64,000 nucleotides of DNA from Centroscyllium fabricii (Eukaryota), in contig JBNRSN020000025.1 in NCBI GenBank assembly GCA_051313645.2, positions 84,940,001-85,004,000 on the forward strand, read 5' to 3'. The number at the start of each line of letters is the position of its first letter. Position 1 is the first letter of the stretch. The position numbers were made by a program, and so were the translations under genes. This document shows positions 1,096 through 49,480 of this stretch, piece by piece. The notes under the pieces were generated by a model that saw only the letters and a program-made list of their open reading frames with translations, was not told the origin of the DNA and ran no database searches.

Positions 1096-1619
1096 TTCTA
1101 CCTCATGAACTGGGAAGTCTGGATTGGGATTTAGTTGTGTTGTGAGTAGATACATTTTGAAGGGTCAGCAGCTTCTCGGAGTTCACAGTTATTACCGCCT
1201 GCTTCTTACTCAAACACCGGTGATTTTTTAAGTCACAATTTTTGTTCTGGTGGCAGTGCCATGAGAAAGACTAAGAAACCCAAAGGCTGTGTGATTGGAC
1301 TGGGAGGAGAAGAGAATCGCCAATCCCCTCATTGCCTCCCCTTGGTCTAGTTAGCTTTTGTTGGCTTAATTTCTGGATCCGTCTTAAGAGTTGAACTTTG
1401 GGTCGCTCAGTGGAGAATCCAATATTCCAGTTTTGCAGCCACTAGACTTGGTGCTGGCTCCTTATATATTTAGGACACGTGACTTTTACCAGTCCACACA
1501 CTTTAGTGTGAATTACTATTCGAAAAAATGTTTAGTCAGATTTGACACATGACTAACAATAGACCAATTATAACTTCACAGTACTGAAAGCCCAATGTAA
1601 TCTTGATGGAATTACATAC

Positions 1620-1733
1620 CAAACCATTCCAAGGTTGGAGGAGGATTCCCAGTTGCAGTGCATCGGAATTCTGCTGTCTGTCCCTGCTTGACTGTTAGGA
1701 TGGGAGGCTCGATTGTCGCTACTGGTGCTGTTG
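1620..1733 (-). CDS. HSPG2: HSPG2 exon, first half of Ig repeat ((A)TAPVATIEPPILTVKQGQTAEFRCTATGNPPPTLEWF), 114 nt, phase 1-1
   Basis: Acceptor ttttgccttgccatag|CA, donor G|gtatgt. AEFRC.ATG.P.PTLEW matches perlecan. Confidence 0.95.
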
Positions 1734-2859
1734 CTATGGCAAGGCAAAACATAATTTTATTCAATTTAAATACTTTAATAACAATCCTTTTGCGAGGCCC
1801 TCCAGCTTGCTTGGAACTGTATAGAAGCTCTTCTCCAATTCTCCGTTGTCTGGGATGGCCAGAGAATGAGAAACCAAATAGATCCATTAAATGAGTGAGT
1901 AACATTCTTTACATAACAAAAAGAAATGATTCAGAGGTAGGCCAGTTAAACAAACGGACACATTTTTAATCCTGGCATTATCAGACTAGAGTGCAGTGGT
2001 GGAGTAGTGAAATAGTAAAAGATTGTTGGTTACAGATATATTGAACAAACCCCAACATCTCCACAAGTTCTGTTTCATTCATAGCGGGCACAGACACTAT
2101 TTACTAATGAATCAAGGAATCTAAGTAATGACAGTGATGAAGTACATAGCCTCTTGCAATTGAACGAGGGATAATATGCCCTGTGGGAATGCCAACTTAT
2201 CGGGCTATATTCACAAACTAAACCAATGGCAGCACCAAGATTAGAGAACTTTGACCCTATTTGAAGCCCTTTTCTCATGTGGTAGCCCGTGATTGGATCC
2301 ACAGATTCTTTGGATAAGAACAGGAAATAAAATAATTTATCATAGTTTGGCCATTGCATCTCAATTTTACCAATTCAACTGACCTGCTCGCAACACACCA
2401 TGTCACAAACTTTTGATTGTCACTTGCACCAGGCTATGCACTGGGGAAGGGCAGTGCCAACAACATATTTACAGCCACCGGTTTTTCCTTTGAGTAACAT
2501 AGTTAAGAGAAACATGCACTGGTTCTGAAAGATACTCCAATTCTGAGTCTAAAGAAACTTGTCATTGGCAGTTGCCCAGATGACTGACCAGATCCTAATC
2601 ATTTTCTTCACTTCCGCACATTAGTTTACTTAGAGACAGAATAGCAATGATTAATTTATTTTGCCTGATTTAAATAAAGCCAGTTTGAAACTTATGGAAA
2701 AAACAGGTTATACTCAAAGTCACTGATAGCAAATAATGGAACCCCTAATTTTCTTGATCTCCTTGAAGGAGGCAAGCTTTCCTTTTTTGAATTCTCCCGA
2801 GTCTTCAATAAACAGTATGGGGTCCTCTGCAGTGCACAAGTGGCACGCCAGCCCATCTT

Positions 2860-3020
2860 CATAGAATCATAGAATCCCTACAGTGCAGATAGAGGCCATT
2901 TCGGCCCATCGAGCCTGCACCGACACATATCCCACCCTATCCCCGTAACCCCACATATTCAATCCCCCTAACACTAAGGGGTCAATTTATCATGGCCAAT
3001 CAACCTAACCCGCACATCTT
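2860..3020 (-). mobile_element. 5'-truncated HE1-like (V-SINE) copy with original tail
   Basis: Reverse complement of the 3' half of the full SINE at 23428; (CATAGAAT)n tail. Confidence 0.8.
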
Positions 3021-5846
3021 GAGCTTTCCTTTCAGATCTAGGAAGAGGAGGAGGCCATTCAGCCCTTCGAGCCTGCTCCATCATTCAACCAGGTCACGGT
3101 TGATCTGCACCTCCACTCTATTTACTGCCGTTGTTTCAGACCACTCCATACCCTCATCTAATAAAAATCCATCCAACAGTCTGGAAAAGTTCAATTGTCC
3201 TAGCAACTGCTTCATAATGATTAACGGGAGCGTAGAGCAGCCCATTTTCTGCTGAACAGCCCTGAACAGATCTGGAAACGGCATTATCAAACACCTGCAC
3301 AGCAAGATCCATGTACAGTTTTAACTTGGGGAGTTTTGAGAAATAAAATCGAGATATGGTTTCAACAGAACCGTTATTTACCCCATGTTTGGAGGGGTTA
3401 CATCAGCCAGCGTAATACCACGGCAATGTTTCCACCAAATGGTTCCTAATGTATTTGAAGTTGGGCGCTGAAATTATTGCCGAAATCGAAGTATCCCAAT
3501 TAACAGGTTGCCAGTGAATTGGTTAATCAGCTCGGTTTGTAGGTGCTGGAACCCTCCCTGAACCAGTCCCAGCTCAGTGTCTGTAGTGCTGCGGACACAG
3601 CACAGAAGCCTCTCACTCACTCGCTCATTATATTGGTGCAATATTCATTCTTGCTGGGGTCAAACAATCCCAAATACTTTGAGCCAGATATGCAATGATG
3701 AGCAATATTGAATTCTACAATCTCAATCTCTAGTTTCATTTTTAGTTGCAGGACTTGAAGTGGGTTAACTTTCATACTTGGGCAGTCTTCATTTCTCTCA
3801 AGTCTAATACATTTATGAACTTATTTTTGCTTCTGGTAAATTCTAGCAAAGGGGTGGGAGGATTCAGAAAAGGGTAACTTCAAAAGCGAGAGAAATGTCA
3901 AGGCTGTAGAACAGAGTAGTGACTGGGATAAAGGTAAGCAGAGTGGGCCAGGAAGGGACAGAGAGAGTAACAATGGTAATAGGGCACTAGGTACTAAAGT
4001 GACATCAGGGAAAAATATTTAAAAAGTTAAAGCTAAGGGCACTATATCTGAATGCATGAAGCATTTGCAACAAAATAGATGAATTAATAGCGCAGATAAA
4101 AATAAATGGGGTTGATTTAATAGCCATTACAGAGACGTGGTTACAGAGTGCCCAAGGTTGGGAACTAAATATTCCAGGATATTTGACTTTCAGAAGAGAC
4201 AGGCAGAAAGGAGGAGGGGTGGTCCTGGCAATAAAGGAGGGAATAAAGACAGTAGAGAGAAAGGATTTTGGCTTGGAAAAATAAAATGTAGAATCAGTTT
4301 GGGTGGAGCTTAGAAACAAGGGACATAAAACACTAGTGGGAGTAGTCTATAGGCCCTCTAACAGTGGTTGTAGTGTGAGGCAGAGTATAAATCAGGAAAT
4401 TAGAGATGCATGTAACAAGGGTAATACAGTGATCATGGGGGACTTTAACTTTCATATAGTCTGAGCAAACCACATTTTCAGAAATAGTGCAGAGGAAGAG
4501 TTCATGGAATGCATTCAAGATAGTTTTCTAGATCAGTATGTCAAGAAACCGATGAGGGATTTGGCTATTTTAGATCTAGTACTATCCAATGAGACAGGGT
4601 TAATTAATAACCTTGTAGTAAAGGAGCCTCTGGGAGCAGTGATCATAATATGATAGAATTTTATGATGATGAGTTTGAGAGTGATTTAGTTAAGTCCGGA
4701 ACTAGGGTCCTAAACCGGAACAAAGCAAACTACATAGGTATGAGAGGCGAGTTGGCTAAGGCAGGTTGGGAAACTAGATTCAAAGATATGGCAGTAGAAA
4801 AGCAATGGCAGCCATTTAAAGAAATAATTCAGAATTCGCAACGAATATCCATTCCCTTAATAAAAACACCATGGAAAAAATGGTCCAACAGTGGCTAACA
4901 AGAGAAATTAAAGATAGTATTAGATTAAAGGAAGAGGCTGATAATGTTGCCAAAAAGAGTAAGCCTGAGGATTGGGAGGATTTTAGAATTCAGCAAAGGA
5001 GAACCAAGAAATTGATAAAGAAAGGGAAAATAGAATGAGTGTAAATTATCAAGAGGCATAAAAACAGACTGCAAAAGCTTCTATAGGTATGTAAAAAAGA
5101 AAAGATTAGCGAAAGTAAACGTGGGTCCCTTACGGGCTGAGACAGGAGAAATTATAATGGAATATGGAAATGGCAGAGAAATTAAACAAATACTTTGTGT
5201 CTGTCTTCACGGAAGAAGACGCAAAAAACCTCCCGGAAATAGTGGAGAACCAAGGGTCGAGCGAGAATGAGGAACTGAAATAGATTATTAGTAAAAAAAA
5301 GTACTGGAAAAATTAATGAGACTGAAGGCCGATAAATTCCCTGGATCAGATGGCCTACATCCTAGGGTTTTGAAAGAGGTGGCTATAGAGATAGTGAATG
5401 CATTGGTTGTCATTTTCCAAAATTCCATAGATTCTGGAACATTTCCACAGATTGGAAGGTAGCAAATGTAACCCCACTATTTAAGAAAGGGGGGGGAAGA
5501 GAGAAATCAGGTAACTACCGACCAGTTAGCCTGACTTCAGTAGCAGGGAAAATGCTAAAATCTATTAGTAAGGACGTAGTAACAGGGCACTTAGAAAATA
5601 ATAATTAGATTGGGTAGAGTCAACATGGATTTAGTAAAGGGAAATTGTGTTTGACGAATCTGTTAAGAGCTTTTTGAGGTTGTAACTAGCAGGATAGATG
5701 AGGGGGAACCAGTGGATGTGGTGTATTTGGATTTTCAGAAGGCATTCGATAAGGTGCCACACAAGAGGTTATTAAACAAAATTAGGGCTCATGGGATTGG
5801 GAGTAATATACTAGCATGGATTGAGGATTGGTTAACGGACAGCAAA

Positions 5847-6073
5847 CATAGAAGATAGGAGCAGGAGTAGGCCATTCGGCCCTTCGAGCCTGCTCCGCCA
5901 TTCAATGAGATCATGGCTGATCATCCAAACCCAGTACCCTGTCCCTGCCTTCTCCCCATATCCCTCGATCCCCATCGAGCCTGCACCGACACATATCCCA
6001 CCCTATCCCCGTAACCCCACATATTCAATCCCCCTAACACTAAGGGTCAATTTATCATGGCCAATCAACCTAA
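5847..6073 (-). mobile_element. 5'-truncated chimeric HE1-like SINE (CR1 tail swapped) inserted in the CR1
   Basis: Interrupts CR1 at ...gacagcaaac|agagtagg; SINE body joined to a CR1 3' UTR tail at about 5971. Confidence 0.8.
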
Positions 6074-6828
6074 CAGAGTAGGAATAAATGGGTCATTTTT
6101 GGGTTAGCAGGCTGTAACTAGTGGGGTACCGCCAGGATCAGTGCTTGGGCCTCAGCTATTCACAATCTACATCAATGGTTTGGATGAGGGGAACCAAATG
6201 TAATATATCCAAGTTTGCTGATGATACAAAGCTGCGCGGGAATGTAAGTTGTGAGGAGAATGCAAGGAGGCTCCAAGGGGACATAGATAGGCTAAGCGAG
6301 TGGACAAAAACATGACAAATGGAATATAATGCGGAGAAATGTGAAGTTATCCACTTTGGTAGGAAAAATAGAAAAGCAGAGTATTTTTTAAATGCCGAGA
6401 GATTAGGAAATGTTGGTGTTCAGATGGACTTGGGTGTCCTTGTACATGAATCACTGAAAGTTAACATGCAGGTACAGAAAGCAATTAGGAAAGGAAATGG
6501 TATGGTTGACCTTAATTACAAGAGGATTTTAGCACAAGAGTAAAGACGTCTTACTGCAATTATATAGGGCCCTGGTGAGACCACACCTGTTGTATTGTGT
6601 ACAGTTTGGGTCTCCTTGCCTAAGGAAGGATCAACTTGCCATAGAGGGAGTGCAACAAAGGTTCACCAGACTGATTCCTGGGATGGGGGGAATTGTCCTC
6701 TGAGGAGAGATTGAGTTGACTGGACCTATATTCTCTCGAGTTTAGAAGAATGAGAGGTGATCTCATTGAAACATATAAAACTCTTACAGGGCTTGACAGG
6801 GTAGATGCAGGGAGGCTGAGGAGTCTAG

Positions 6829-6966
6829 GGTAGAGTGTTCAACACATCGAGACAGAGACAGGATTGTGTGTGTGTTCAGCCATTGCTCGAGGCCTTGTTT
6901 AATCTGGTCTCACTTCCTGTTAACCCTCTGTTGCCCCCTACTGGGCAGAGGGTAACTATCACCACA
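6829..6966 (-). mobile_element. 138-bp solo-LTR-like insertion with TCTAG target-site duplication
   Basis: TCTAG at 6824-6828 and 6967-6971 within the CR1. Minus strand starts TGTGG, contains ATTAAA and ends ctacc (degenerate CA). Confidence 0.55.
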
Positions 6967-7133
6967 TCTAGAACCAGGGGTCACAGTCTCAGAATAAGGG
7001 GTCAGCCATTCAGGACTGAGATGAGAAGTTTCTTCACTCAGAGGTTGGTGAATCTTTGGAATTCTCCACCCCAGAGGGCTGTGGAGGCTCAGTCGTTGAG
7101 TATATTCAAGACAGATAGATAGATTTATGGATA

Positions 7134-7728
7134 CAGGTTGAGCACCGTTAATCCAGCACGGGCGGGACCAGGCCCGTGCCGGGCAAGTGAAATCGCGAAC
7201 AACTGAAGCTTCGGCGAGCGCATACCATTCAAAATGGCCACCGCGAAAGACCGGCAGCCATTTTGAGTGGTCTGCACATGCGCTTATCGTTCGGCGAGTC
7301 CCGGCCCAGCCCGCAATCGGGGAGTCCCGGCCCAGCCCGCGTTCGGGGAGTCCCGGCCCAGCCCGCGTTCGGGGAGTCCCGGCCCAGCCCGCGTTCGGGG
7401 AGTCCCGGCCCAGCCCGCGATCGAGGAGTCCCGGCCCAGCCCGCGATCGAGGAGTCCCGGCCCAGCCCGCGATCGGGGAGTCCCGTCCCAGCCCGCGATC
7501 GGGGAGTCCCTCGATTGGGGAGTCCCGGCCCAGCCCGCTATCGGCTCGGAGAGACCATTGTGAATGATCTGCGCATGCGCTCGGCGTTCAGCAGTGCATA
7601 CGCAGATCATTCGCCGAAGCATGAATCGCGGCAGCCATTTTGTGCATGCGCGGGGCAGTCGGGGAAATTATTGCCGGACGTTCGAAGTTGCCGATTTTTC
7701 GGGTAACGGATTAACGGTGCTCAACCTG
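7134..7728. mobile_element. Tigger/pogo-like (Tc1-mariner) MITE
   Basis: 21-bp TIR CAGGTTGAGCACCGTTAATCC / GGATTAACGGTGCTCAACCTG, TA duplication, no transposase. Confidence 0.9.
7292..7545. repeat. 26-bp GC-rich minisatellite (GGGGAGTCCCGGCCCAGCCCGCGWTC), about 9-10 units, inside the MITE
   Basis: Direct tandem units visible; source of the repetitive ORFs at 7187-7706. Confidence 0.9.
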
Positions 7729-9123
7729 TATTAAGGGAATCAAGGGTTATGGGGATAGTGCAGGAAAGTGGAGATGACATAGAAGATCAGCTGTGATCAT
7801 ATTGAATGGCGGAGCAGGCTTGAGGGGGCGAATGGCCTACTCCTGCTCCTATTTTTTATGTGGCCTTTTCTTTGTGAATTCTGAGATCAAGGCGAAGGAT
7901 GTTAGTGGTGGAAATGACTCAGGCACCCAGTGTCAGCATTAAGCGTGCAGGTCAGGTGTAGCACAGTTAGATTTAGAGTAGAGCAATTTCTATTCTGCCG
8001 CAACATTATAATACCCACTACTGCACCAGTACAACATTGTCCCATTTCCCACACATCCTGTGGCTTCGCTGGACGAGACTGCCAATTCGGAGCAGTTTTA
8101 TACAAGCCTGTGGATAGGACTCGTGAAACTCATTTCACATACAACTTATCAGACAAGAGACTTCCACCCCATCAGTCTGGGCTATCCCTTACTTAGAACT
8201 TTTCAATTTCCTTTTCACTATCCATATATTCTTCTTTCCTTCAAGTTTGTTTTCCAGATTTTCTTTCCCCAAGATCCTTCGATCCATATCTCACTCCTGC
8301 AGCTATCGGCAGCAATTTTACTGCAGGAACTACCAACAGAAGGCCAATCCCTATTCACGGGTGCAGCTATTTATTGTAGCCTGTACCAAATCTGGTTATA
8401 TTATTCCTATCATGGTCAGTTTATAGCACTCACGTCACTGAGAAAGGTATCTAGAGCTCATGCAATTAAATGCATTAAACACAATTGATAGGTTTGAAAA
8501 AAATACTGAAAGTCTGAGTTGAGTTGAATAGCTGACCCTATTTATTGAACAAGTTCCAATGTAACAAAGTCCCTTGGCACTATGGAAAAGGGTCTGAATA
8601 GAGAATCCTGGACACATTATTGAGGCCCAATAGAAGGGTAACATTAAAGTTTTCATTTGGCATTGCTGAAGGCAAAACTCCTCGTGATGAATAACTGGGG
8701 GGCATCATTCCCCTAAACAATACTCCTGTACTAATTTATATTCTCAACATAAGTTACGAGAATCAGATTAGGTGTCTGAAAACACAATCGAGCTCTGAAT
8801 CAGGCGAAGTTGGCAGGGTATCATGGCCGAGTGCTTTGAAGAACTTGGCTGTTTCCAATGTCTTTAATTATCTGTGGCATTGGTTGGATTTTTTTTGGTG
8901 GGATTTCTATCCCGGTCAGTCTAGTACATGAATACTGTAATAATATATTTGAACCCCTTGTTTTAGCTGACAATTTCACTTCAAGGTTTGTTTTTAAAGA
9001 ATCTGATTTGCAATTGTTTGGGGAAAACCATAAAGAAAATGTAAAACGCCAAGAAATAAAAGTCACCCGAGAACTGAAGTAACTTTCAAGAAATTCTGTT
9101 ATTTGGACAAATCCCAGTTATAT

Positions 9124-9412
9124 TGCAGGGAATGGCAGTCCCCTAATCTTCGAAATCGATAATAACATCGAAAGGACGTGGAGCAAACGTAAACAGGTCT
9201 TTATTGGTTTCGATCCAGAAACGACTGAGTTACAAAAGGCGCTAAAATGCAAAGCATCATGGGGCTTTTGTTGGACAGCCTGCAGGACCAATCAAGGACC
9301 GGAACTGTTGATCCAACTAACCAATGAGGAAACAGGGGCGGGACCAACTCTGGAATGTGGATTCTAACATCCTGGGGGAATCGGAGTGTTTCCCCCTCGT
9401 GGCTCTGCTACA
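9124..9412 (-). repeat. 3' LTR of the Gypsy element
   Basis: Direct repeat of 12754-13042, preceded by the polypurine tract. Confidence 0.93.
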
Positions 9413-12400
9413 TACGCCCCCCCAGAATCCTCATGAACATGATACGTCAACCTCCGAGGCGGCCGCTACGGGTACGATAGGCCGCCGGTGCAAGGGGCAC
9501 TAGCGGTGAGCCGCGAACAGGACTGGAGGGCGGCTGTGCCGCAGGAGTAGGAGGCGAGACCAGAGAGCAAGATGTGGAGTTGTACCCGAGGGTGTAAACA
9601 GCGCGGGACCCGCTGGGGGCACGCTCGGGACAGAGAAACGCTCCTGGCGCGGTGCCCGGGAAAACTGTTCAGGCAAGGCAGGATCCAAATGGGCTGGTTT
9701 AAGCCGGTCGATGGAAACGCGGTCCTGCCGGCCCCCAACCGCAAGGAGGAAAGATTTGTCACCAGCCTCCAGCACACTGAAAGGGCCGGTATAAGGCGCC
9801 TGTAAAAGAGTTCTATGGGTGTCACGATGCACAAAACCAAATTGTGCCCAGCGGAGCTCGGTGGGTATGTGGGACTACCAGGCCCCGTGCCGAGAGGTGG
9901 GCACAGGAAGGAAACGATGCGCGGCGTCATTGTGCCGAGTGAGCTGCTCACCGGCTGACCAATTCTCGGTGACGGAGGGGAGGAACTCTCCTGGAATGCG
10001 CAAAGGTTGCCCAAACACGAGTTCGGTGGAAGACACGCCGAGGTCGTCCTTGGGAGCGGAGCGTAATCGCAGAAGGACCCAAGGGAGTCTGTCCAACTAG
10101 TTGGCGTCGACCAGGCTTGCATGAAGTGAGGCCTTGAGGGCGCGGTGGGACCCCTCGCAAATACCGTTTGCCTGCGGATGATAAGCAGTCGTGCAGTGCA
10201 ACTGCGTCCCCAGGCCAGTGGCGATTGCGCTCCACAGCTGGGAGGTAAACTGTGGGCCCCTGCCAGAAGTGATGTCCGACGGAACCCCAAACCGGGCCAC
10301 CCATGAAAAAATAAAGGCGCGTGCCACATCAGCCGAAGTGGTGGAAGCAAGGGGTACGACCACCGACCACCTGGTAGTGCGGTCCACGATGGTAAGGAGA
10401 TGGGTGAAACCCTGTGATGGGGACAAGGGGCCAACCAAATCAACATGGATATGATCAAACCGCCGCTCGGGCACCGGAAAATTTTGCAGGGGCGCCTTAG
10501 TGTGCTGATGGACCTTAGCGCGTTGGCAGTCCTGGCAGGTGTTATTCCAGTTCCGGCAGGTGTTATTCCAGTTCCGCACATCTTTGTGTAGGCCTGGCCA
10601 GACAAATTTGGCGGACATGAGCTTCTGAGAAGCTCGCATGGCCCGGTGTGAGAGCCCATGGACCAAACCAAAAATGTGCCTGCGCCAGGAGGTGGGCACT
10701 AAGGGCCATGGGGTGGAAACGGAAATGTCACGCAAGAGGGTCGTACCGGCTGCCTGAAAATGAACATCCGCTAGGGTCAGTCTGGTGGATGCAGAACGAA
10801 GAGCCTGCAGCTCGGCATCCGCCCGCTGGGCGCGCGCCATCTCTGCATAATCAACACCAACGTGGACCGTGTGGATGGAAGGACGGGAGAGGCAGTCGGC
10901 AATGACATTATCCTTACTGGACACGTGACGAATGTCCATAGTAAATTCTGAAATGAAATTCAGGTGGCGTGGTTGGCGACATGACCAGGGTTCTGTGACC
11001 TTGGACATGGCAAAAATTAGGGGCTTATGGTCCACGTAAGCAGTGAACGGACGGCCCTCCAAGAGAAAACGAAAATGCCACACTGCGAGAAAAAGAGCTA
11101 GCAGTTCCCGGTCGAACGTGCTATACGAGAGCTCACTTTTCCGCAGTTGGCAGCTAAAAAATGCGAGGAGCTGCCAGGCACCATCAACCCATTGTTGCTG
11201 AACGGCGCCAATGGCATGATCCGAAGCGTCCGTCGTGAGCGACAGTGGGGCGCCCAGGATGGGGTGGGTCAAAAGGGTGGCTTCGGCCAGGGCTGACTTA
11301 GTGAGGCGAAAAGCCTCAGCCATTTTGGCCGACCACTGAAGACTATCTTTGCCGGTCTTGCCCCTAGTGGCCTCGTACAGGGGCCGCATGATGGCGGCGG
11401 CCTTGGGAATGAACCGGTGATAAAAATTTACCAGTCCCAGAAATTCCTGTAGTGCCTTAACCGTGCTGGGCTGGGGAAAATCTGTGACCGCTTCGACTTT
11501 AGAGGGTAAAGGGATGGCTCCCGCCGGGGAGATGTGATGTTGGACGGCATGTTTGGCTGCCACCTTGGAAAAGGTCGGCTGTGTAATGGTCGGGAACTTG
11601 GCCAGTAGTCACGCATATTTGTCGCGAAGAGGAGGAGAGCAGGAGCCCACAAGGGGTTGGCTGTCGCTCCGCTGGCAGGGCAGGGAGGTAAAGATAGACA
11701 CGTCCATGAGGCGTCTGCCCCGGACGTCCATGAGCAGGCCATGGGCACACAGGAAATCCACGCCCAGCAATGGATGTTCCACATGGGTCGTAACGAAATC
11801 CCAGGTAAACCATTGGCCACCCAGGCGAATCTCTGCCCGCCGTTTTCCAAAAGTGGCTATGGCTGTGCCATTCACCACCACGAGGGGTGGGCCACTGCGG
11901 CCTGCTTGTCGATCGAGCTGCGTAGCTGGTAGAATGCTGCATTGAGACCCGGTGTCGCAGAGGAACTTTCGTCCAGAAAGTGAGTCTGTGACGTACAGCA
12001 CTTTCCCGTTATGCCAATGGCATTAGCAGCGGCTGGGCTTTGGCGGCTGGGCCTTGGCGGCGGTGCGGGGTCGGAGCGTGGGGTTTGGACACAACCTCTT
12101 TGCCGTCGAATGAACAAGGTGGTCGGCAGCGATGAGCCTTCTGGCCGAAACATGCATGGTAATAACAGCTGCGTAGGGGCAGAGAGACTCGTGGATGCAC
12201 AGTTAGTGGGTGCACAAAGGCAAACACGGTCCGCAGCGGTGGCCAACTCGGCGTAGGTCCCGCCTTTAACGTTTGCTAAAGCCGATTGCACAGGCTGTGG
12301 GAGCAGACTGATGAATAGCGCCCGAAACAAAGGGCAGTCTTTGTGGTCCCCGAGGAGGGCTAGCATGCGATTCATCAGGCGCGTAGGCGTGGAGTCGCCT

Positions 12401-12753
12401 AGGTCCGAGAGTTCGAGGAGTTTCCGGGTCCTTACATCTTCCGGTAGGTCGTGAGCCTGGAGCAGTCGGCTCTTAATGGCAGCATACCTGTTAGTTTGAA
12501 GCAGGTCCTGCAGCAGGTCCACGATGTCCGTGGCAATGTGGCTAGGCAGAGCCGAAATGACGAGGAGGTAGCAGTCCTCAATTGCTATCGAGGCGCTTGA
12601 GCTGGAACTGGGCCTCTGTTTGCAAAGACCAAGCGGCTGCCTGGTGCTCCCAAAAGGTGGGGAGGCTGATGGTCGACGGCCTTTCGCGTTGCCCAGCCTC
12701 GGGGTTCGCGTTCTGGTCAGCACCTTCTGGTTCTGACATTCAGGGTCACCAAT

Positions 12754-13042
12754 TGTAGGGAACGGCAGTCCCCTAGTCTTCGAAATTGCTAATAACGTCG
12801 AAAGGACGTGGAGCAAACGTAAACAGGTCTTTATTGGTTTCGATCCAGAAATGACTGAGTTACAAAAGGCGCGAAAACGCAAGGCATCATGGGGCATTTG
12901 ACGGACAGCCCGCAGGGCCAATCAAGGACCGGAACTGTTGATCCAACTAACCAATGGGGAAACAGGGGCGGGACCAACTCTGGAATGTGGATTCTAACAT
13001 CCTGGGGGGATCGGAGTGTCTCCCCCTAGTGGCTCTGCTACA
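12754..13042 (-). repeat. 5' LTR of the Gypsy element
   Basis: Direct repeat of 9124-9412, followed by the PBS on the minus strand. Confidence 0.93.
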
Positions 13043-13852
13043 ATATGATAAAAACGAGTTACTTAGCAAAAAATTAAACAAAGTTTTGCGATTCACAATG
13101 AACCAAAGTAATAAATGATCACAAAGTGGTTTTAGATGAAGAAATGACTTGGAACTTCCAGCTATGCCACAGTGATGGTCTCACCCTACGATGCTGAAGC
13201 TAACTGACAGTCTCAACAAAGCCACTAAGCTGGTTTTGCACTTTCTGTGCCAGCTTGGCAGCAGACGAGTTCAAACAATAACGTTGTGTAAAATAAGGGG
13301 AGATAATTCAGAGTTCTGGTGAAAGGGCCTGGGATTATAGCCAGCTTTTGAATGCATTACCGCAACAGTGCGAGGAGTCAGTTTTTGTTATTTATGCTGA
13401 TGGCTGCAATGAAAAGTGAGAACATACCGGCAACAGTACAATGAGTTAACGCTCTTCAGTCTACAAGCTTCCAGTTCTCACCCAATTCTCCCACAGTCAG
13501 GCTGTTACCACAGGTCACAGGCTTAGGTACTGTAACTATTTTAACTTTATCTAAAGGGTATCTTTGGAGCCAGACATTAAAGTTAGACATTTTGAGGGAC
13601 TTGTTTGATGACAGTAGTGATGAGGTGATATATGGAGCAGCGTATGGAGGGATGCATGAAAAAGATTCATGGACATCAATGGGACACAGATTAGAATAAC
13701 CATGGAACCCAATATAGCAGAAACATGATCGGGAATATTGCCCTTTAGTTGCAGTACCTATAGAGCCTTGCTGTTGAAAAAGCATTGGATAAATTGAAAT
13801 GTATCATATAATTTCAAAGCCCCAAAAAGATTTGCATGTGTTTTCCATTGTT

Positions 13853-14465
13853 AGGAATGTAGAACAGGAGGAGGCCATTCAGCCCCTTGAGCCTGTTCCC
13901 GATCATGGTTGATCTGAATCGAACTCCATTTACCCGTCATTTATCCCTTACCAAACAAAAATCTATCACTCAGTTTTGAAATTTTCAATTGTCCCCCCGG
14001 CCTCAACAGCTTTTTGGGGCAGAGAGTTCCAGATTTCCCCCACCCTTTGTGTGAAGAGGTGCTTCCTGACATCCCCCCTGAACACCCTGGCTCTAATTTT
14101 AAGATTGTGCCTCTTGTTCTGGACTCTCCCACCAGAGGAAATAGTTTCTCTCTATCGACCCCATCAACTCCTTTAATCATCTTAAACACCTCGATTAGAT
14201 CACCCCTCAATCTTCTAAACTCCAGGGGACACAAGCCCAGTTTGTGCAACCTGTCCTCATAATTTAACCCTTTTAGCCCCGGGATCATTCTGGTGAATCT
14301 GCGCTGCCCCCCCCTCCGAGGCCAAGATATCCTTCCTGAGGGGCGGGGCCCAGAACTGAACACAGTGACTGCAGGTGGAGTCTGACCAGAGCTTTGTACA
14401 ACTGTCCCATAACATCCACCCCTTTGTATTCCTGCCCTCGAGAGAGAGAGAAAGGCTAACATTCC
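13853..14465 (-). mobile_element. CR1 LINE 3' fragment
   Basis: QRRFTRMIPGLKGLNYEDRL...RRLRGDLIEVFK C-terminal ORF2 motif plus tail. Confidence 0.88.
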
Positions 14466-15570
14466 ATTCTTATATTGTTAATAAAGTTCAGTATTCAATT
14501 TGTATAAATCTATTCATCAGGCAAATTCTCCTCCTCCTGAAAACATGCTCTCTTACTCTGCTGGAATGGTTGAACTGGTGATGTCACTTGCACAGTATTA
14601 TAAATCCCACTAGTTGAACTTCTGTTCAGTGGTTTGGGATGGAGAATGGCGCTCCCCATGATCAATATATGCAGCCATGCCAATTTCACTCACATCCCAA
14701 AAACAAATACTAAAAAAAGATCAAGTTCAAAATTGCCATCAATTGACAATAAAGCAGATTGATGAATCAGATTGTGCATAAAAATGTCATCTCATGCTGA
14801 CCCAATCTCTGGTCTGATATTGAAGCAAATGAATGATTCAGGCAGGTTCATGCATAAAACTTTGGGAAAAACATGCCAGAAATAGATCACATGAAAATTG
14901 TCCAGTCTTCTGTCTGCATGCACTTTTTGTTTTAAATATCATTATACACAGACACAATGTGTGAGAATTAACTGCACCCAATCAAACATCTCATTACATC
15001 CCAGATCAAGGACTAATGTTGGTGTACACACTCCATTTGAAAATACAGGGAGGGCTGGGTGACAAGGAGCTGCTACTTTTGGGATGGTTCTTTTTAAATT
15101 CATGTAGTCTATCTCCTCACCTTGATGGAAGCAGTGAAAAACCTGAAACACAGTGGTACCTTCTCACACATCCACTACCTACATGGTGCTTCAGAATCCC
15201 ACTCATCTGCTGCAACGGGACAGGGCCTAATAGGAATGGATGAAAGTACCCTTACTTTATATATTCACAGAAGGTATGGCGGCACATGGAAATTGTACAT
15301 TCACTGGTGGCGAAAGGGTGAGAATGGGGTGAAAGGTCTTGCATAGCTTATTTAAAAAAATCTATTTTTATACTGGGAGAGGGGGATGAGAATTCACCAA
15401 ATGCTATTAGCCTTGGGTCATTATTGAATGTTACCCTGCTTGGCTTATGAAAAATGTACACCAACACTGTGCTAACTTTGGTATGAGAATATTGGAGATA
15501 GATATGTAAATGAGAGAGAGAAAGATTCCAGCAAAATACGATACATCAACATCACACCATGCCAACTTAC

Positions 15571-15624
15571 ATTGTCTGTTTCCTTCTAGTGTTTCAAATG
15601 TCTGAAAATGGACCTGTGAGGGAG
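15571..15624 (-). CDS. HSPG2: HSPG2 putative alternative cassette exon, inter-Ig linker ((A)PSQVHFQTFETLEGNRQ(S)), 54 nt, phase 1-1
   Basis: Acceptor catgttaactccacag|CT, consensus donor T|gtaagt. Open in the required frame and symmetric in phase with the flanking exons. Resembles a short insert I recall in non-mammalian perlecans (APS...F...E..EGHR). Confidence 0.72.
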
Positions 15625-16239
15625 CTGTGGAGTTAACATGTCAGATTAAATATCTAGCGAATAAGTACCCATTACATGATGTGAGCACAAACATACCCCA
15701 CTCTTCTACTGACAGTGGAGGATCTGTAGCCAGATTAAAAACCACAGTGCACAGCTTGATTCAGACTCTGGAGCCCATGCAATGATCTCGTTGAAGTTGT
15801 TATGCTAAGAACCCACTATCGTAAACTCCTTTGCTTGCAACAGAATCCAAATGATCAGACATCACAAAATACAAGAGAATGAGCACGTGCAGTTAAACTG
15901 CAACCATCTGGAACTAAAATACATCGATTGATTAATTCACCCAAGGGATCTGCACTGAGCTAGGGTGTAAGATACCGAATCTGGTTTTTCAAGACATCAT
16001 TTCACTGTAAACGGATTGTCCAGTGAGGCTTCTCTTCAAGAAATGTCGAAAGTATCAACAAGTTTGTGCCATTGATTCAAAGATTAAATATATACTGCAG
16101 TCCAGAGGCTTACCTGAAAATAACTGCATCATTTGCAAGGCTACTTCCAATTAATAATGCTTTTAAAAGGGCTACTACCAGAACCAGCTTCTATTCAGAT
16201 CAAATCTAAATGATGTGCATGGGTACAGAATCCAGAGAG

Positions 16240-17290
16240 TTATGGTACTGAACTAGCAACCCCAAAGTCTCGAGTTCAAATCCTATCACGGCAAACTGTG
16301 AATCTGAATTAAAGAAAACTGTGGTAACTTGTGAGTTGGCACCAGTTAACGACCATGAAAGCTGTCGGATAATCATAAATACCGAACTGCCTCCCCTACC
16401 GGCATGTGACTCCAATCCCACACTATAGGGGGTATTTTCGGAGGGCCGTGAGGACGAGTTTCCAGTGGGGCGGGGCTTAAAATCACGAAACCGTGGGGTC
16501 CCGACCCCTCCCGCCGGATCCCCACCGCTTTGCAGTTTTCGGCCGGTGTCTCTTGCCAGCCCGAGTCTTTCCCGCCCGTCACCAGCGGGGTTGATCATTA
16601 TGCTCGTTAGGGGCCCTTAACTGCCATGGGTAATCCCATTTTAAGGGCCCCTTGCGATTTCTGAGCCCTTCCCACCCATACTCCGCCATCCTGAAACCCC
16701 GCCGGTGGAACCTAGCGGGATCACAGTCAGCTTGGTCACTTTCACCTTCAAGGCATTGAAGGACCTGTAGCAGAATGCCTTCCAGGCCTTCAACACCCTG
16801 GAGATGTAAGTGACTCCCTTGTCTGAAGAGCAGTTGTGGAAAAAACCTTACAAACACTTACCTAACAGATGAATGGAAATGCATCATAGAGGGACAGCCC
16901 CTAACTGTGAGCTTTCCAGCGAGTCCTTAGACCTGTCACTCAACCCACTTGTGCTTTGAAATTGGTTACACTCCATTGTGATGTCATAATGCACTGTTTC
17001 CATAGAAACTAACACACAGTCCTTACCCCTTGAATCAAACCTCTAGCTGTCAGTTGCAGCTCTGCCGTTTTCTGACTGGAATCAGTCAATTGGCAGGGGC
17101 TCTGACACGCGGGCAATTAATTGGCCAATTAAGCCAAAATTGCGTGGGGTTCTTGAGGCCCTTGAACATTTGTGTCAGAAACCTGATCCGTCCAAAACCC
17201 ACCAGGTTCCCACAGCTTTGCGAAAATCCCCCCCATGTGCTTGACTCTTAAAGCCCTTGGGGCAACTGGAGATGGTCAATAAATGCAGAC
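16240..17290 (+). mobile_element. Old shark SINE-like element split by the MITE at 16428-17233
   Basis: B-box-like gagttcaaatcc, body gaccatgaaagctgtcgga...tgtgactcc, and tail ggggcaactggagatggtcaataaatgc related to the LINE tail at about 62790-62843. Confidence 0.5.
16428..17233. mobile_element. Non-autonomous DNA transposon (MITE, possibly PIF/Harbinger-like)
   Basis: Imperfect TIR GGGGGTATTTTCG / CGAAAATCCCCCC; the host SINE resumes on both sides. Confidence 0.6.
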
Positions 17291-17904: not shown

Positions 17905-18304
17905 AACTAAACAGTATAGGAGTTGAAAGAAAACTGTAATTACTGAACGAACATTGGCAAACTGGTTTTGGGGAGCCAGCACACTGTCTGTAACTATATA
18001 TAACCAGCGTCCTCAAACTTTCCAATTAGAGACAAGCACACCCTCAAAATGCAGTACGTTCCAATGAATGGCTGACTGCCCAGCAACATTCAGCACAGTC
18101 CTTAGTGCAAGGTGCAATTCATGGATATCGGGATTTTTCCAATGTTGGGAATAATGTACATCATCAGTGACCCTATAAAGGCCAGAGCGCAACAAGTAGC
18201 CAGCAGGAGGAGCATAGTTAAAGATAGGGAAATTCAGCAAGGCACAAAAAATCTGCTGAAGTCAGTGCAAAGGAGATGCAGTGAGAGACTAAGAAGCAGA
18301 AACT

Positions 18305-20358
18305 GAAGGAGAGAGCAAGGCAAGACTAGAGGAACTGGAGGAGAGAGCAGGGAGGCTAGAGAAACTGGAGGAGAGAGCAAGGCAAGACTAGAGGAACTGG
18401 AGGAGAGAGCAGGGAGACCAGAGGAACTGGAGGAGAGAGCAGGGCAAGACTAGAGGAACTGGAGCAGAGAGCAGGGAGACCAGAGGAACTGGAGGAGAGA
18501 GCAGGGCAAGACTAGAGGAACTGGAGCAGAGAGCAGGGAGACCAGAGGAACTGGAGGAGAGAGCAGGGCAAGACTAGAGGAACTGGAGCAGAGAGCAGGG
18601 AGACCAGAGGAACTGGAGGAGAGAGCAAGGCAAGACCAGAGGAACTGGAGGAGAGAGCAAGGCAAGACCAGAGGAACTGGAGGAGAGAGCAAGGCAAGAC
18701 CAGAGGAACTGGAGGAGAGAGCAAGGCAAGACTAGAGGAACTGGAGGAGAGAGCAAGGCAAGACTAGAGGAACTGGAGGAGAGAGCAAGGCAAGACTAGA
18801 GGAACTGGAGGAGAGAGCAAGGCAAGACTAGAGGAACTGGAGGAGAGAGCAAGGCAAGACTAGAGGAACTGGAGGAGAGAGCAGGGAGACCAAAGGAACT
18901 GGAGGAGAGAGCAAGGCAAGACTAGAGGAACTGGAGGAGAGAGCAGGGCAAGACTAGAGGAACTGGAGGAGAGAGCAGGGCAAGACTAGAGGAACTGGAG
19001 GAGAGAGCAGGGAGATCAAAGGAACTGGAGGAGAGAGCAAGGCAAGACTAGAGGAACTGGAGGAGAGAGCAAGGCAAGACCAGAGGAACTGGAGGAGAGA
19101 GCAAGGCAAGACCAGAGAAACTGGAGGAGAGAGCAGGGAGACTAGAGGAACTGGAGCAGAGAGCAGGGAGACCAGAGGAACTGGAGCAGAGAGCAGGGAG
19201 ACCAGAGGAACTGGAGGAGAGAGCAGGGCAAGACTAGAGGAACTGGAGGAGAGAGCAGGGCAAGACTAGAGGAACTGGAGGAGAGAGCAAGGCAAGACTA
19301 GAGGAACTGGAGGAGAGAGCAAGGCAAGACTAGAGGAACTGGAGGAGAGAGCAAGGCAAGACCAGAGGAACTGGAGGAGAGAGCAAGGCAAGACCAGAGG
19401 AACTGGAGGAGAGAGCAGGGAGACTGGAGGAGAGAGCAGGGCAAGACCAGAGGAACTGGAGGAGAGAGCAAGGCAAGACCAGAGGAACTGGAGGAGAGAG
19501 CAGGGAGACTAGAGGAACTGGAGGAGAGAGCAAGGCAAGACTAGAGAAACTGGAGGAGAGAGCAAGGCAAGACCAGAGAAACTTGAGGAGAGAGCAGGGA
19601 GACTAGAGGAACTGGAGGAGAGACCAGGGCAAGACTAGAGGAACTGGAGGAGAGAGCAGGGCAAGACCAGAGAAACTGGAGGAGAGAGCAGGGAGACTAG
19701 AGGAACTGGAGCAGAGAGCAGGGAGACCAGAGGAACTGGAGGAGAGAGCAGAGGAACTGGATGAGCGAGCAAGGCAAGACCAGAGGAACTGGAGGAGAGA
19801 GCAAGGCAAGACCAGAGAAACTGGAGGGGAGAGCAAGGCAATACTAGAGGAACTGGAGGAGAGCGCAGGGCAAGACCAGAGGAGCTGGAGGAGAGAGCAA
19901 GGCAATACTAGAGGAACTGGAGGAGAGAGCAGAGCAAGACCAGAGGAACTGGAGGAGAGAGCAGGGCAAGATTAGAGGAACTGGAGGAGAGAGCAGAGCA
20001 AGACTGGAGGAGAGAGCAGGGAGACTAGAGGAACTGGAGGAGAGAGCAAGGCAAGACCAGAGGAACTGGAGGAGAGAGCAAGGCAAGACCAGAGGAACTG
20101 GAGGAGAGAGCAGGGCAAGATTAGAGGAACTGGAGGAGAGAGCAAGGCAAGACCAGAGGAACTGGAGGAGAGAGCAGGGCAAGACTAGAGGAACTGGAGG
20201 AGAGAGCAGGGCAAGACTAGAGGAACTGGAGGAGAGAGCAGAGCAAGACTGGAGGAGAGAGCAAGGAGACTGGAGGAACTGAAGGAGAGAGCAGGGAGAC
20301 TGGAGGAACTGAAGGAGAGAGCAGGGCAAGACTAGAGGAACTGGAGGAGAGAGCAGGC
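18305..20358. repeat. About 2-kb purine-rich minisatellite, 32-bp unit GGAGAGAGCAAGGCAAGACTAGAGGAACTGGA with 30-bp variant, about 65 units
   Basis: Tandem units directly visible; source of the low-complexity L/S/P ORFs. Confidence 0.97.
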
Positions 20359-25030: not shown

Positions 25031-25961
25031 CCGGGCTACCATGGGGATCTACTCATATCTGAGATACATAAACAGACCTGGGCTACCATGGGGATCTACT
25101 CGTATCTGAGATACATAAACGGAACTGGGCTACCACGGGGATCTACTCATATTTGAGATAGATAAATGGACCTGGGCTACCATGGGGATCTACTCGTATT
25201 TGAGATACATAAACGTACCTGGGCTACCATGGGGATCTACTCGTATTTGAGATATAAACAGGCCTGGGCTACCATGGGGATCTACTCGTACCTGGGATAC
25301 ATAAATAGACCTGGGTTACCATGGGGATCTACTCGTATTTGAGATACATAAATGGACCTGAGCTACCGTGGGGATCTACTCGTATTTGAGATACATAAAC
25401 GTACCTGGGCTACCATGGGGATCTACTCGTATTTGAGATATAAACAGGCCTGGGCTACCATGGGGATCCACTCGTACCTGGGATACATAAATAGACCTGG
25501 GTTACCATGGGGATCTACTCGTATTTGAGATACATAAATGGACCTGGGCTACCGTGGCGATCTACTCGTATTTCAGATACATAAATGGACCTGGGCTACC
25601 ATGGGGATCTACTCGTATTTGAGATATAAACAGGCCTGGGCTACCATGGGGATCTACTCGTACCTGGGATACATAAATGGACCTGGGCTACCATGGGGAT
25701 CTACTCGTATTTGAGATACATAAATGGACCTGGGCTACCACGGGGATCTACTCGTATTTGAGATACATAAATGGACCTGGGCTACCACGGGGATCTACTT
25801 GTATTTGAGATACATAAATGGACCTGGGCTACCATGGGGATCTACTCATACCTGGGATACATAAACAGACCTGGGCTACCACGGGGATCTACTCGTATCT
25901 GAGATACAAATGGACCTGGGCTACCATGGGGATCTACTCATATCTGAGATACATAAATGGA
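25031..25961. repeat. 47-bp minisatellite, 20 units (CCTGGGCTACCATGGGGATCTACTCGTATTTGAGATACATAAATGGA)
   Basis: Head-to-tail units with no unique spacers. Confidence 0.97.
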
Positions 25962-33470: not shown

Positions 33471-33908
33471 TGGAGCACCAGGGCCATGACCTGGAGCACG
33501 GGGACCATGACCTGGAGCACGGGGACCATGACCTGGAGCACCGGGGACCATGATCTGGAGCACCGGGGACCATAATCTGGAGCACCGGGGACCATAATCT
33601 GGAGCACCGGGGACCATGATCTGGAGCACCGGGGACCATGATCTGGAGCACCGGGGACCATGATCTGGAGCACCGGGGACCATGATCTGGAGCACCGGGG
33701 ACCATGATCTGGAGCACCGGGACCATGACCTGGAGCACCGGGGACCATGACCTGGAGCACAGGGAACCATGACCTGGAGCAACAGGGAACCATGACCTGG
33801 AGCACAGGGACCATGACCTGGAGCACAGGGACCATGACCTGGAGCACAGGGACCATGACCTGGAGCAACAGGGACCATGACCTGGAGCACCAGGACCATG
33901 ATCTGGCA
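33471..33908. repeat. 21/22-bp minisatellite (TGGAGCACCGGGGACCATGAYC), about 20 units
   Basis: Tandem units visible; source of ORFs at 33413-33921. Confidence 0.95.
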
Positions 33909-35434: not shown

Positions 35435-35615
35435 CTGGCACGTGTAGGACAGCAGTCCCCTCGTCCATTGCAAACATGTTGGAACCTGTGCAGACGTAGA
35501 CATCAGCATCCTCCGGGCGAACATTGCGGATGGTCAGGATTCCATTGAAGTCCACAGCGGTGTTTGGGAGTTTACCCCCGAGCTGGCGGGTCCACACCAG
35601 CGTGTACGCTGGGGA
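35435..35615 (-). CDS. HSPG2: HSPG2 exon, second half of Ig repeat (SPAYTLVWTRQLGGKLPNTAVDFNGILTIRNVRPEDADVYVCTGSNMFAMDEGTAVLHVP), 181 nt, phase 0-1
   Basis: Acceptor ttttgatttctag|TCC, donor CCAG|gttcgt. Very close to recalled human sequence. Confidence 0.96.
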
Positions 35616-40569: not shown

Positions 40570-41165
40570 CTGGAAGAGAAGAATGCAAAAGTAACTGTTA
40601 GTCACCTCATGTTACTTATAGCAGCGGATAGCCAAACCCTTTGTTCCTAAACTCAATCTAGCTCTAAGCCATTGACAGCCAATGGATGGGACGGGCAGAT
40701 GATCTATTCGGTGCCACGGCTATCCTCTACAACATCAAAGATCAATGGCTACACCGTCAGTCCACTGGAGATCAGCACCACAAGCTTGCAAGTGCTCAAA
40801 TCCAACCTGTCTCCCCACCGGTAACACTGTCACAACAAATCTCATCCTTCCTCGCTAAACCGAAAAGCCTGCATTCAACATGTGAATTCTGCACGTTTCT
40901 TTTCAAGTCTATCTTTTATCTGGACCTTCAAATAGTTAAATATGGACTTTAGTCATCACTTGTTTGGCCTCGATTGTTCGATCAAGTGCGACCACAAGAG
41001 TGATCCAAACAGGAGTGGTCACAAACCCCTTAAGGGCACAGTCTCTTTTGTGGCCACTAATGAAACAATTCTCCCAAAAACAAGAGTGTGGCACAGTTCA
41101 AACAGTGGAATCCAACAGCTAAACTAAATTATTACAAGGTTAAGGGCAAACCCAGAGCAGTCTCT

Positions 41166-41365
41166 NNNNNNNNNNNNNNNNNNNNNNNNNNNNNNNNNNN
41201 NNNNNNNNNNNNNNNNNNNNNNNNNNNNNNNNNNNNNNNNNNNNNNNNNNNNNNNNNNNNNNNNNNNNNNNNNNNNNNNNNNNNNNNNNNNNNNNNNNNN
41301 NNNNNNNNNNNNNNNNNNNNNNNNNNNNNNNNNNNNNNNNNNNNNNNNNNNNNNNNNNNNNNNNN
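41166..41365. other. Assembly gap (200 N)
   Basis: Run of N. Confidence 1.
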
Positions 41366-42518
41366 GAAGGATGTTCTTGCCATGGAGGTAGTTCAGCAAA
41401 GATTCACCAGGCTGATACCTGGGATGGCAGGAATGACGTATGAGGAGAGATTGGGTCGATTGGGCTTATACTCACTGAAGTTTAGAAGAATGAGAGGGGA
41501 TCTCATTGAAACTTATAAAATTCTAACAGGACTAGACAGACTAGATGCAGGAAGGATGTTCCTGATGGTCGGGGAGTCCAAAACATATTGTCCAGGTGAC
41601 CCAAGATGGCGGCGCGTGTACACGCAGCGGCTTTGCGTCTCCCGGGATGATGCTGTCCGCTGGTAGTTCCGGGTTTGTTCGCTCGGCGGGGTCGGCGTGT
41701 TAGTGCACTGAGGCCAGTGCAACGGACTTGTTGGAGCAACGGGATGTCTGCGTTGGGGATGCACCGAGGCGTGGTCTCTGAGGAGCGCCAGTGTTTGTGT
41801 GGTCTCCGAGGTCGGAGCGCCGGAGGTCGGCAAGTTCGGAGCACCGGGGCCTGCAGAGTCGGAGTGCCGGTGCCTGCGTGGTTACCGAGGTGGTCGTAGC
41901 GTCGGAGGTCAGCGAGTTCGGAGCGCCGGAGGTCGGCGAGTTCAGAGCACTGGGGCCTGCAGATTCGGAGTGCCGGTGCCTGCGTGGTCACCGAGGTGGT
42001 CGTAGCGTCGGGGGTCGGCGAGTTCGGAGCGCCAGAGCCTGCGTGGTCGGAGCACCAGGGCCAACATGGAGTTGAACAGTCTGGGACTTGAAGCAATGGA
42101 CATTTTAACATCTGCATCGTTTTTTGGGTAGTTTGCAAGTATGCATTTCGTTGTATTGTGTTTCACTATGCAATGACAATAAAATTGAATCTGATCTGAT
42201 CTGATCTGAGAACCAGGGGTCACAGTCTAAGGATAAGGGGTAAGCCATTTAGGACAGAGATGAGGAGGAACTTCTTCACCCTGAGAGTGGTGAACCTGTG
42301 GAATTCTTTACCACAGACGGCAGTAGAGGCCAATTCATTAAATATATTCAAGATGGAATTGGATACATTTCATAAGACTAAAGGGATCAAGGGATATGGG
42401 GAGAAAGCAGGGACAGGGAACTGAATTTGGATGATCAGCCATGATCTCATTGAATGGCGGAGCAGGCTCGAGGGGCCGAATTGCCTACTCCTGCTCCAAT
42501 CTTCTATGTTTCTATGTT
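41366..42518 (+). mobile_element. CR1 LINE 3' portion, interrupted at about 41580-42208
   Basis: KDVLAMEVVQQRFTRLIPGM motif; the CR1 resumes at agaaccaggggtcacagtc and ends in a (TTCTATG)n tail. Confidence 0.9.
41580..42208 (+). mobile_element. Non-autonomous bipartite retroposon (CAAGATGGCGG 5' end, internal GC-rich tandem repeats, caatgacaataaa(ATCTG)n tail)
   Basis: Clean insertion into the CR1 at ggggagtcc|agaacc; internal repeats GAGGTCGGCGAGTTCGGAGCGCC. Confidence 0.72.
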
Positions 42519-43799: not shown

Positions 43800-44125
43800 C
43801 CCTCCTCATCTCTAACCTCCAGCCCCAAAACCCTTGGTGAACTCTGCGTTTCCCACACTCGGGCCACTTGTGCATCCCTGCTCCCCCCCTCTTACCGCCA
43901 TTGCCGACAGTGCCTTCAACTGTCTAAGACCCGCGCTCTGAAATTCCCTCCTTAAATCACTGCCTCTCTCTCTCTCCTCAATAAAACCTACTTCTTTGAC
44001 TGAGATTTTAGTCATCCTCCCTAATATCTCCTCCATTGGCTCACTGCCCTTTTGATCCGATTAGGCATCTGTGAAACACCGTGGGACATTTTCCGACATT
44101 AAAGATGCTGTATAAAGACAAGTGG
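43800..44125 (+). mobile_element. L2-type 3' fragment
   Basis: Diverged match to the L2 3' regions at about 840-1095 and 57290-57650. Confidence 0.55.
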
Positions 44126-45039: not shown

Positions 45040-45098
45040 CGACTGGATGACACTTCTGGCCTGGGATTCTTGGATTCCCAGAATACCCGGAAGCACAG
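45040..45098 (-). CDS. HSPG2: HSPG2 exon, last LE of domain III ((R)CASGYSGNPRIPGQKCHPV), 59 nt, phase 2-1
   Basis: Acceptor tttccttttcag|C, donor G|gtacgt. C..GY.GNP...G..C pattern. Confidence 0.92.
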
Positions 45099-48712: not shown

Positions 48713-48840
48713 AAAGCATTTCATTCATCTCAGTAGAATATAAAAAATAATCTGTTAACACAGCCCTGGATAATGAAGGGGGGGAAGAACTAACAAGGGG
48801 AGACCGAGAGGAAGAGAACTCGGATACCAGACCAGAAGAG

Positions 48841-49380: not shown

Positions 49381-49480
49381 TTGGCCAGGGGGATGGGGAA
49401 ACGGGCAGGGAAACACAGGGGAGACCGGGGAGCAACGAGGAAAAGGGGGGAGAACCAAGGACACAGGGAAGGGAAAGGGG

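Follow-up and report, generated by a model that had tools for sequence, protein, structure and literature searches.

Does a 54-nt segment buried in a long intron of the perlecan (HSPG2) gene of the shark Centroscyllium fabricii act as an optional exon, and if so, what might control its inclusion and what might the peptide it adds contribute to the protein? The segment was proposed in a preliminary description of the window (the whole 64,000-nucleotide stretch of DNA analysed here, to which all positions refer) as a hidden cassette exon that inserts a short linker between two Ig domains. Below, we lay out its genomic setting, phyletic pattern, peptide and flanking signals, as a platform to weigh a mechanism for its use.

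The exon and its genomic setting

The window carries part of the perlecan gene of this cartilaginous fish on the minus strand. A tblastn search over the window recovered ten exons collinear with the perlecan of Mustelus asterias at 78–95% identity. The exons flanking the segment are orthologous to domain III–IV with their order kept, as seen from this search and from the match to PDB 1GL4_B (Table 1). The upstream exon is 181 nt in length and ends in phase 1. It is followed by an intron of 33,701 nt, which holds the cassette, whereas the gaps between the exons further upstream are only about 1–6 kb.

Within this intron, 15571–15624 is bounded by AG and GT, has a length divisible by three, keeps the same phase on both sides and contains no stop codon. 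When joined in silico by script to 35435–35615 and 1620–1733, both the inclusion and the skip forms remain open. Thus, the 54-nt length, the GTAAGT donor, the 1-1 phase and the in-frame skippability put forward earlier all hold in the sequence, and the joined peptides are identical to those originally given. Because orthologs of this exon exist in other vertebrates, we regard it as almost certainly real; going by its sequence, it would also very probably be skippable in C. fabricii.

Table 1. Features of the perlecan cassette exon and its surroundings (offsets with a plus sign count from the exon into the downstream intron)
Feature	Position	Strand	Details or basis
Cassette exon, perlecan (HSPG2)	15571–15624	-	54 nt in phase 1-1; encodes 18 aa placed between IG3 and IG4
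Upstream exon: IG3 second half, nidogen-binding Ig domain	35435–35615	-	phmmer to PDB 1GL4_B, E 1.3e-28
Downstream exon: first half of IG4 (next Ig domain)	1620–1733	-	92% identity to Mustelus perlecan 2119–2157
Acceptor region, weak: CAG, short pyrimidine run	15625–15649	-	Sequence; rough score -0.5 vs 2.0 for the downstream exon's acceptor
Candidate branch points CTGAC and TTAAT	15640–15644; 15645–15649	-	Putative
Donor GTAAGT, consensus	15565–15570	-	Sequence
Proximal element, +9 to +16: GCATG overlapping TGGTG	15555–15562	-	Sequence, motif count
Distal cluster, +650 to +1027: six GCATG (two being TGCATG), candidate RBFOX cluster	14544–14922	-	Motif count
Lone upstream TGCATG	15776–15781	-	Sequence; not enriched, p 0.12
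Predicted long-range helix, 5' arm	15455–15466	-	Prediction only
Predicted long-range helix, 3' arm	15017–15028	-	Prediction only

Other features of the window

An exon of about 55 residues from the first domain-IV Ig (Mustelus residues 1915–1969) was not found between its neighbours (40570–45041), and a sensitive search for this missing first-half IG2 exon returned nothing; it probably lies inside a 200-N assembly gap (41166–41365). The intron holding the cassette contains an LTR-retrotransposon-like element (9122–13042) with minus-strand ORFs resembling gag/pol and direct repeats of 291 nt that are 93.5% alike (9122–9412 and 12752–13042), which we take to be a member of an LTR-retrotransposon family. 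The same intron carries tandem arrays of a 32-mer (63 copies, 18301–20256), a 47-mer (20 copies, 25033–25961) and a 22-mer (20 copies, 33471–33906). Further, a perfect 24-bp inverted repeat (7131–7154 and 7708–7731) surrounds a 26-mer tandem array in an arrangement resembling a small transposon. On the plus strand, antisense to perlecan, 48751–52247 holds a LINE-like element that includes pieces resembling an endonuclease and a reverse-transcriptase-like ORF of 676 aa.

Phyletic distribution of the insert

An insert at the same junction is annotated in perlecans of a shark and skates (18 aa) and of ray-finned fish, frogs and sauropsids (20 aa). It is the sole difference in all ten isoform pairs that were compared; thus, both forms have been modelled for the orthologous exon. 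The claim that the exon is hidden was therefore overstated, as the ortholog is already part of RefSeq isoforms modelled for a second shark and two skates. These XP_ isoforms are automated models that carry no tissue or level. The expectation that an orthologous exon should be present in other sharks or fishes was borne out at the same junction in Mustelus, skates and ray-finned fish, and protein comparisons agree with the earlier statement that fish, amphibian and bird perlecans have an insert that the human protein lacks.

An initial protein search yielded 67 matches. Just 11 of them read cleanly into the next Ig, six (four teleosts, a turtle and a kiwi) carrying a 20-aa insert and five lacking it, and the remaining 56 end at the intron, run into it or are garbled. 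Among the best 120 of 830 full-length matches, the insert was found in 97 ray-finned sequences, two cartilaginous fish and one crocodilian-like sequence, while three catfish and all 16 therian-type sequences are without it and one sequence is unreadable; this sample is biased toward inclusion because the query carried the insert. A sequence named 'Gavia...' is probably crocodilian rather than avian, as it is 98% like a crocodile sequence over the region.

Both forms recur among the listed members of sequence clusters. The models with and without the insert number 12 and 3 of 15 in Mustelus, 10 and 2 of 12 readable ones in skates, 9 and 1 of 10 in sturgeon, 14 and 1 of 15 in gar, 11 and 2 of 13 in Conger, 9 and 4 of 13 in arowana, 12 and 3 of 15 in stickleback and 14 and 1 of 15 in catfishes. 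The corresponding figures are 12 and 3 of 15 in a frog-like RefSeq cluster, 14 and 1 of 15 in turtles, 13 and 1 of 14 in pythons, 5 and 2 of 7 in vipers, and 0 and 2 in alligator. Models of the frogs Ascaphus and Hymenochirus also bear the insert. Such counts are not levels, since most RefSeq models follow the longest path through the exons. With an insert-centred query, all 120 listed sauropsid matches contain it. In birds, 15/15 and 10/11 listed members include the insert and no pair with and without it occurs within one species among them; hence, judging from these models, its inclusion in birds may be close to constitutive. None of the 15 eutherian (human included) and none of the 15 marsupial listed members has it, and the exon was, as read from protein models only, likely lost on the lineage to therian mammals. 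No match could be assigned to a monotreme, lungfish, coelacanth, chimaera or cyclostome.

Is the shark exon the same as that of bony vertebrates? The C. fabricii insert shares only 5/17 residues with the teleost form, 7/17 with that of Ascaphus and 10/17 with that of Mustelus. The insert thus drifts faster in cartilaginous fish than the next exon, which retains 92% identity over the same comparison with Mustelus; C. fabricii and three other cartilaginous fish all retain its frame, length and donor. Scored with a profile of 36 distinct inserts from bony vertebrates, with no shark sequence, the cassette ranked first (z 6.6) among 430 candidates in the 33,701-nt intron (open AG..GT segments of 48–72 nt), a score reached by none of 2000 shuffles. 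When the intron was translated in six frames and searched with plain hmmsearch, the cassette came third of 1407 fragments without reaching significance (E 3.2). The profile rank, together with the agreement in position and phase, dates the exon to before cartilaginous and bony fish separated, about 450 million years ago. The proposal of an ancient skippable perlecan exon is therefore supported by orthologs that share its position and phase, in sharks through to birds.

A comparison of four contig sets with 1500–16400 at 80% likeness showed no joint at the cassette among the 15 of 3088 joints listed, the table being swamped by repeats. Two RNA-like runs from a relative covered the downstream exon at depths of 58 and 94, versus 3–10 for the listed intronic pieces; in one such run the cassette bin had no extra cover, which proves nothing. 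A contig of a relative spanning 14376–16400 differs at 121 positions in about 2014 nt, which resembles other parts of the intron, so there is no raised conservation at the 2-kb scale.

The peptide and its place after IG3

The upstream exon aligns with 1GL4 chain B, named as the Nidogen-1 G2/Perlecan IG3 complex in PMC8763633, and hence the insert directly follows the nidogen-binding domain. This identification of the preceding domain as IG3, made by sequence match, had escaped the preliminary description. Two AlphaFold2 models were computed from small alignments (10 sequences with Mustelus first and 12 with a teleost first). Both Ig domains are folded in each, the insert has a pLDDT below 50, and 19 and 26 residues separate the flanking strands when the insert is present. 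A folded structure for the insert itself was predicted in neither model.

The insert is nevertheless well conserved within bony vertebrates. Across 64 ray-finned segments its identity is 88% (94% for the core); IG3 stands at 90%, the beginning of IG4 at 79% and the constitutive linker at 67%. Across 55 tetrapod segments, the insert reaches 89%, compared with 81% for the beginning of IG4 and 60% for the constitutive linker. Between fish and tetrapods the identity falls to 56%, no higher than that of IG4 (57%). The conserved stretch can be written as Q-[VM]-[HF]-[FY]-x-x-hydrophobic-E-x-x-E-G-[HNY]-R and is not invariant, but an aromatic and acidic pattern with E..EG.R is retained from skate to bird. 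Predicted disorder combined with conservation above that of the surroundings is the profile of a short linear motif, clear in bony vertebrates and weaker in cartilaginous fish. This combination suggests that the insert may harbor a short interaction or cleavage motif; perlecan domain IV has been described as MMP-sensitive (PMC9010944).

A search of 1.84 billion representatives with the insert profile returned 27 matches: 4 spliced perlecans, 19 genomic read-throughs and 4 unrelated weak ones. Thus, among these matches, the motif was not met in other protein families, barring one weak phosphatase resemblance. The phosphatase in question is a fish receptor tyrosine phosphatase that resembles the insert core weakly but repeatedly (residues 1107–1139); we treat this as chance because the score sums ten stretches. 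A degenerate pattern had no matches in metagenome contigs.

The peptide could instead be a mere spacer within a regulated exon, with its length rather than its sequence uncoupling IG3 from IG4 and its conservation reflecting exonic splicing signals. Plain linkers drift in sequence, and the cartilaginous fish do show such fast change, with 10/17 residues identical between C. fabricii and Mustelus; the ray-finned core, in contrast, is 94% identical, above IG4 and far above the adjoining linker. Similarly, while the predicted disorder, the lack of the motif in other families among the 27 matches (the weak phosphatase resemblance aside) and the fact that therian mammals manage without the insert would all suit a spacer, an aromatic and acidic pattern held from skate to bird is unusual for a plain linker. 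We therefore consider the spacer explanation rather unlikely and lean towards a sequence-specific role for the peptide, as its pattern of conservation would imply.

Splice signals and candidate regulatory elements

The sequence 5' of the exon ends in ...CTCCACAG, and that on its 3' side starts with GTAAGT. By a rough matrix the donor scores 5.2 and the acceptor -0.5; a splice-signal scan alone did not recover the cassette, its acceptor falling below the threshold used. In other vertebrates, all 19 genomic read-through ORFs continue with [R/G/C]-K after the exon, i.e., with a GT AAR donor. The acceptor of the preliminary description stands with respect to its AG, but the 'ttaac' included in it, at -12 to -8, lies nearer the AG than is usual for a branch point, and CTGAC at -20 to -16 is a better candidate. 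Within the cassette, two internal CAGs (15614 and 15602 on the minus strand, after 11 and 23 nt) could, from their sequence, serve as frame-shifting alternative acceptors. Neural microexons of the SRRM4 type are at most 27 nt (loosely, at most 51) with a UGC just upstream of the acceptor. This class was rejected for the present exon, which measures 54 nt (60 in bony vertebrates) and has no TGC within the 60 nt before the AG.

The downstream intron showed a marked concentration of GCATG. First, seven copies (the +9 site and the six distal ones) occur in its first 1.1 kb versus 1.2 expected, which makes this the intron's densest such span; the density was matched in only 1 of 1000 shuffles, and the antisense maximum is 4. 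This constitutes the downstream (U)GCAUG enrichment of RBFOX-activated exons, albeit in a 1.1-kb span picked after seeing the data. GCATG is not enriched in the first 250 or 500 nt (p 0.24 and 0.42), nor is the hexamer TGCATG alone (2 in 1.1 kb, p 0.11–0.20), and the GCATG sites are predicted to be mostly paired (unpaired 0.11–0.56). The sites noted originally (GCATG at 15558–15562 and TGCATG at 15776–15781, 14917–14922 and 14849–14854) are correctly placed, and four further downstream GCATG sites had been overlooked.

Second, the proximal element appears, from read-through ORFs, to be common to C. fabricii and teleosts. Ala-Trp (GCN TGG) is encoded at +9 to +14 in 9/16 fish-type ORFs, where C. 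fabricii reads GCA TGG, and in 0/3 sauropsid-type ones; Trp (TGG) at +12 to +14 is retained in 12/16 fish-type ORFs, better than the preceding Ala codon. GCATG itself is inferred in teleosts, because the third base of the Ala codon is unreadable from protein. Downstream (U)GCAUG is known to enhance inclusion (PMC2777236), and in mouse Ntrk2, distal clusters of at least four sites have proved functional (PMC12435732). The earlier proposal of RBFOX control thus gains from the seven-copy cluster and the apparent conservation at +9; it remains something that we infer, and we hold it to be moderately probable on these motif patterns.

Third, a predicted helix (Table 1) has 12 perfect pairs, 15 with G-U, at a pair probability of 0.98, and would loop out 426 nt. 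If formed, it would bring the GCATG cluster nearer the exon. Comparable 12-bp stems arise in 18/1000 shuffles of 650 nt and 62/1000 of 1100 nt, the intron holds five of them, and taken as a whole the region is predicted to be no more stable than its shuffled versions. We therefore treat the RNA bridge as a lead only.

Regulators other than muscle or neural RBFOX1 also merit consideration, namely ESRP or CELF acting via a GU-rich stretch (epithelial), or RBPMS or MBNL together with RBFOX2 (smooth muscle). TGGTG, which we take to be the ESRP/CELF-type motif of this stretch, is present in three copies within 250 nt downstream of the exon (p 0.005 relative to the intron rate), one of which overlaps the +9 GCATG, and the better retention of TGG than of the Ala codon (12/16) would sit well with it; over 1.1 kb, however, TGGTG is not enriched relative to shuffles (227/1000). 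QKI, NOVA and MBNL-type motifs showed no clear enrichment in the downstream intron. In rat, RBPMS, RBFOX2 and MBNL activate another Hspg2 exon (PMC10570038), which lends the smooth-muscle version a precedent, whereas in six supplement files of an Esrp study hspg2 was seen only in sea-urchin tables, though it might appear under other gene names or beyond the portions covered (PMC5703972). Overall, we judge control by these other factors to be improbable.

A proposed mechanism

With the exon, its frame, its orthology, the paired isoform models in other species and its position after IG3 in place, we propose the following path. The weak acceptor and strong donor would render the exon skippable. 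The proximal GCAUG and the distal six-site cluster would recruit RBFOX and favor inclusion, which would extend the IG3–IG4 link from a few residues to about 19–26. The longer link might loosen IG3 from IG4, and inclusion would expose the conserved stretch of the insert beside the nidogen site. Taken as a whole, this reading (an alternatively usable 54-nt exon with RBFOX-promoted inclusion and a disordered, motif-bearing peptide after IG3) is one that we favor slightly.

That the exon is instead near-constitutive in non-mammalian vertebrates with noise skipping, or a decaying relic in C. fabricii, is very improbable: most listed models do include it (birds almost always), its acceptor in C. fabricii is weak and its sequence is divergent in sharks, but models lacking it turn up repeatedly, in shark, skate, sturgeon, gar, teleosts, frog, turtle and snakes, and C. 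fabricii and three other cartilaginous fish keep the frame, length and donor.

A bolder extension of the preferred RBFOX-based reading, which we offer as speculative and unlikely to hold in full, is that an RBFOX switch about 450 million years old, aided in sharks by the RNA bridge, sets a ligand-binding peptide by the nidogen site and so tunes basement-membrane attachment per tissue, and that therians lost it. If this were true, perlecan-disease models in zebrafish, frog and chick would express a form of the protein that humans cannot make, because therians lost the switch.

Relation to known systems

Paired forms at this junction with an 18-aa insert of related sequence have been modelled in Mustelus asterias (XP_078095295.1, X1, and XP_078095301.1, X6) and Amblyraja (XP_032903831.1 and XP_032903833.1). 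These RefSeq forms are automated only, with no tissue, regulator or function attached. No paper on the perlecan cassette exon was found in full-text searches of a mostly open-access literature; it may be catalogued in splicing atlases or bioRxiv supplements. The exon is already in automated annotation and apparently unstudied in the literature. Few vertebrate HSPG2 splice variants have been described, and their function is unclear, according to PMC6266596. While the exon does not represent a new kind of mechanism, an optional peptide right after the nidogen-binding IG3 offers a small, testable target. The mouse construct in 1GL4 ends at IG3, and the insert, which comes after it, is hence outside that structure. 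The apparent absence in therians matters when work on fish, frog and chick perlecan is set against human Schwartz-Jampel and related disease.

Among regulated perlecan exons, unc-52 of C. elegans provides one comparison: it skips whole Ig-coding exons, whereas the cassette described here adds a short inter-domain peptide. Its splicing is tissue-regulated, by mec-8 and others (PMC6266596). Another is a 51-nt exon of rat Hspg2, which, like the cassette, is frame-preserving, optional and at a domain boundary, and is RBFOX2-dependent in rat (PMC6613909, PMC10570038); the activation by RBPMS, RBFOX2 and MBNL was reported in vascular smooth muscle cells (PMC10570038). The two differ in that the rat primers map near residue 190 and its 17-aa insert is Pro/Ala/Thr-rich and present in mammals; identity with this RBPMS-regulated exon (PMC6613909) was rejected on its different place and its 51-nt length. 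Mammals have an optional perlecan exon near residue 192 (17 aa, Pro/Ala/Thr-rich) that matches the regulated rat exon.

No sequence relation to the y and z exons of agrin is claimed, and the insert's own ligand is only a putative one. These agrin exons nonetheless offer a parallel: they are small, conserved and in-frame, belong to a basement-membrane proteoglycan, and act as a proven ligand switch.
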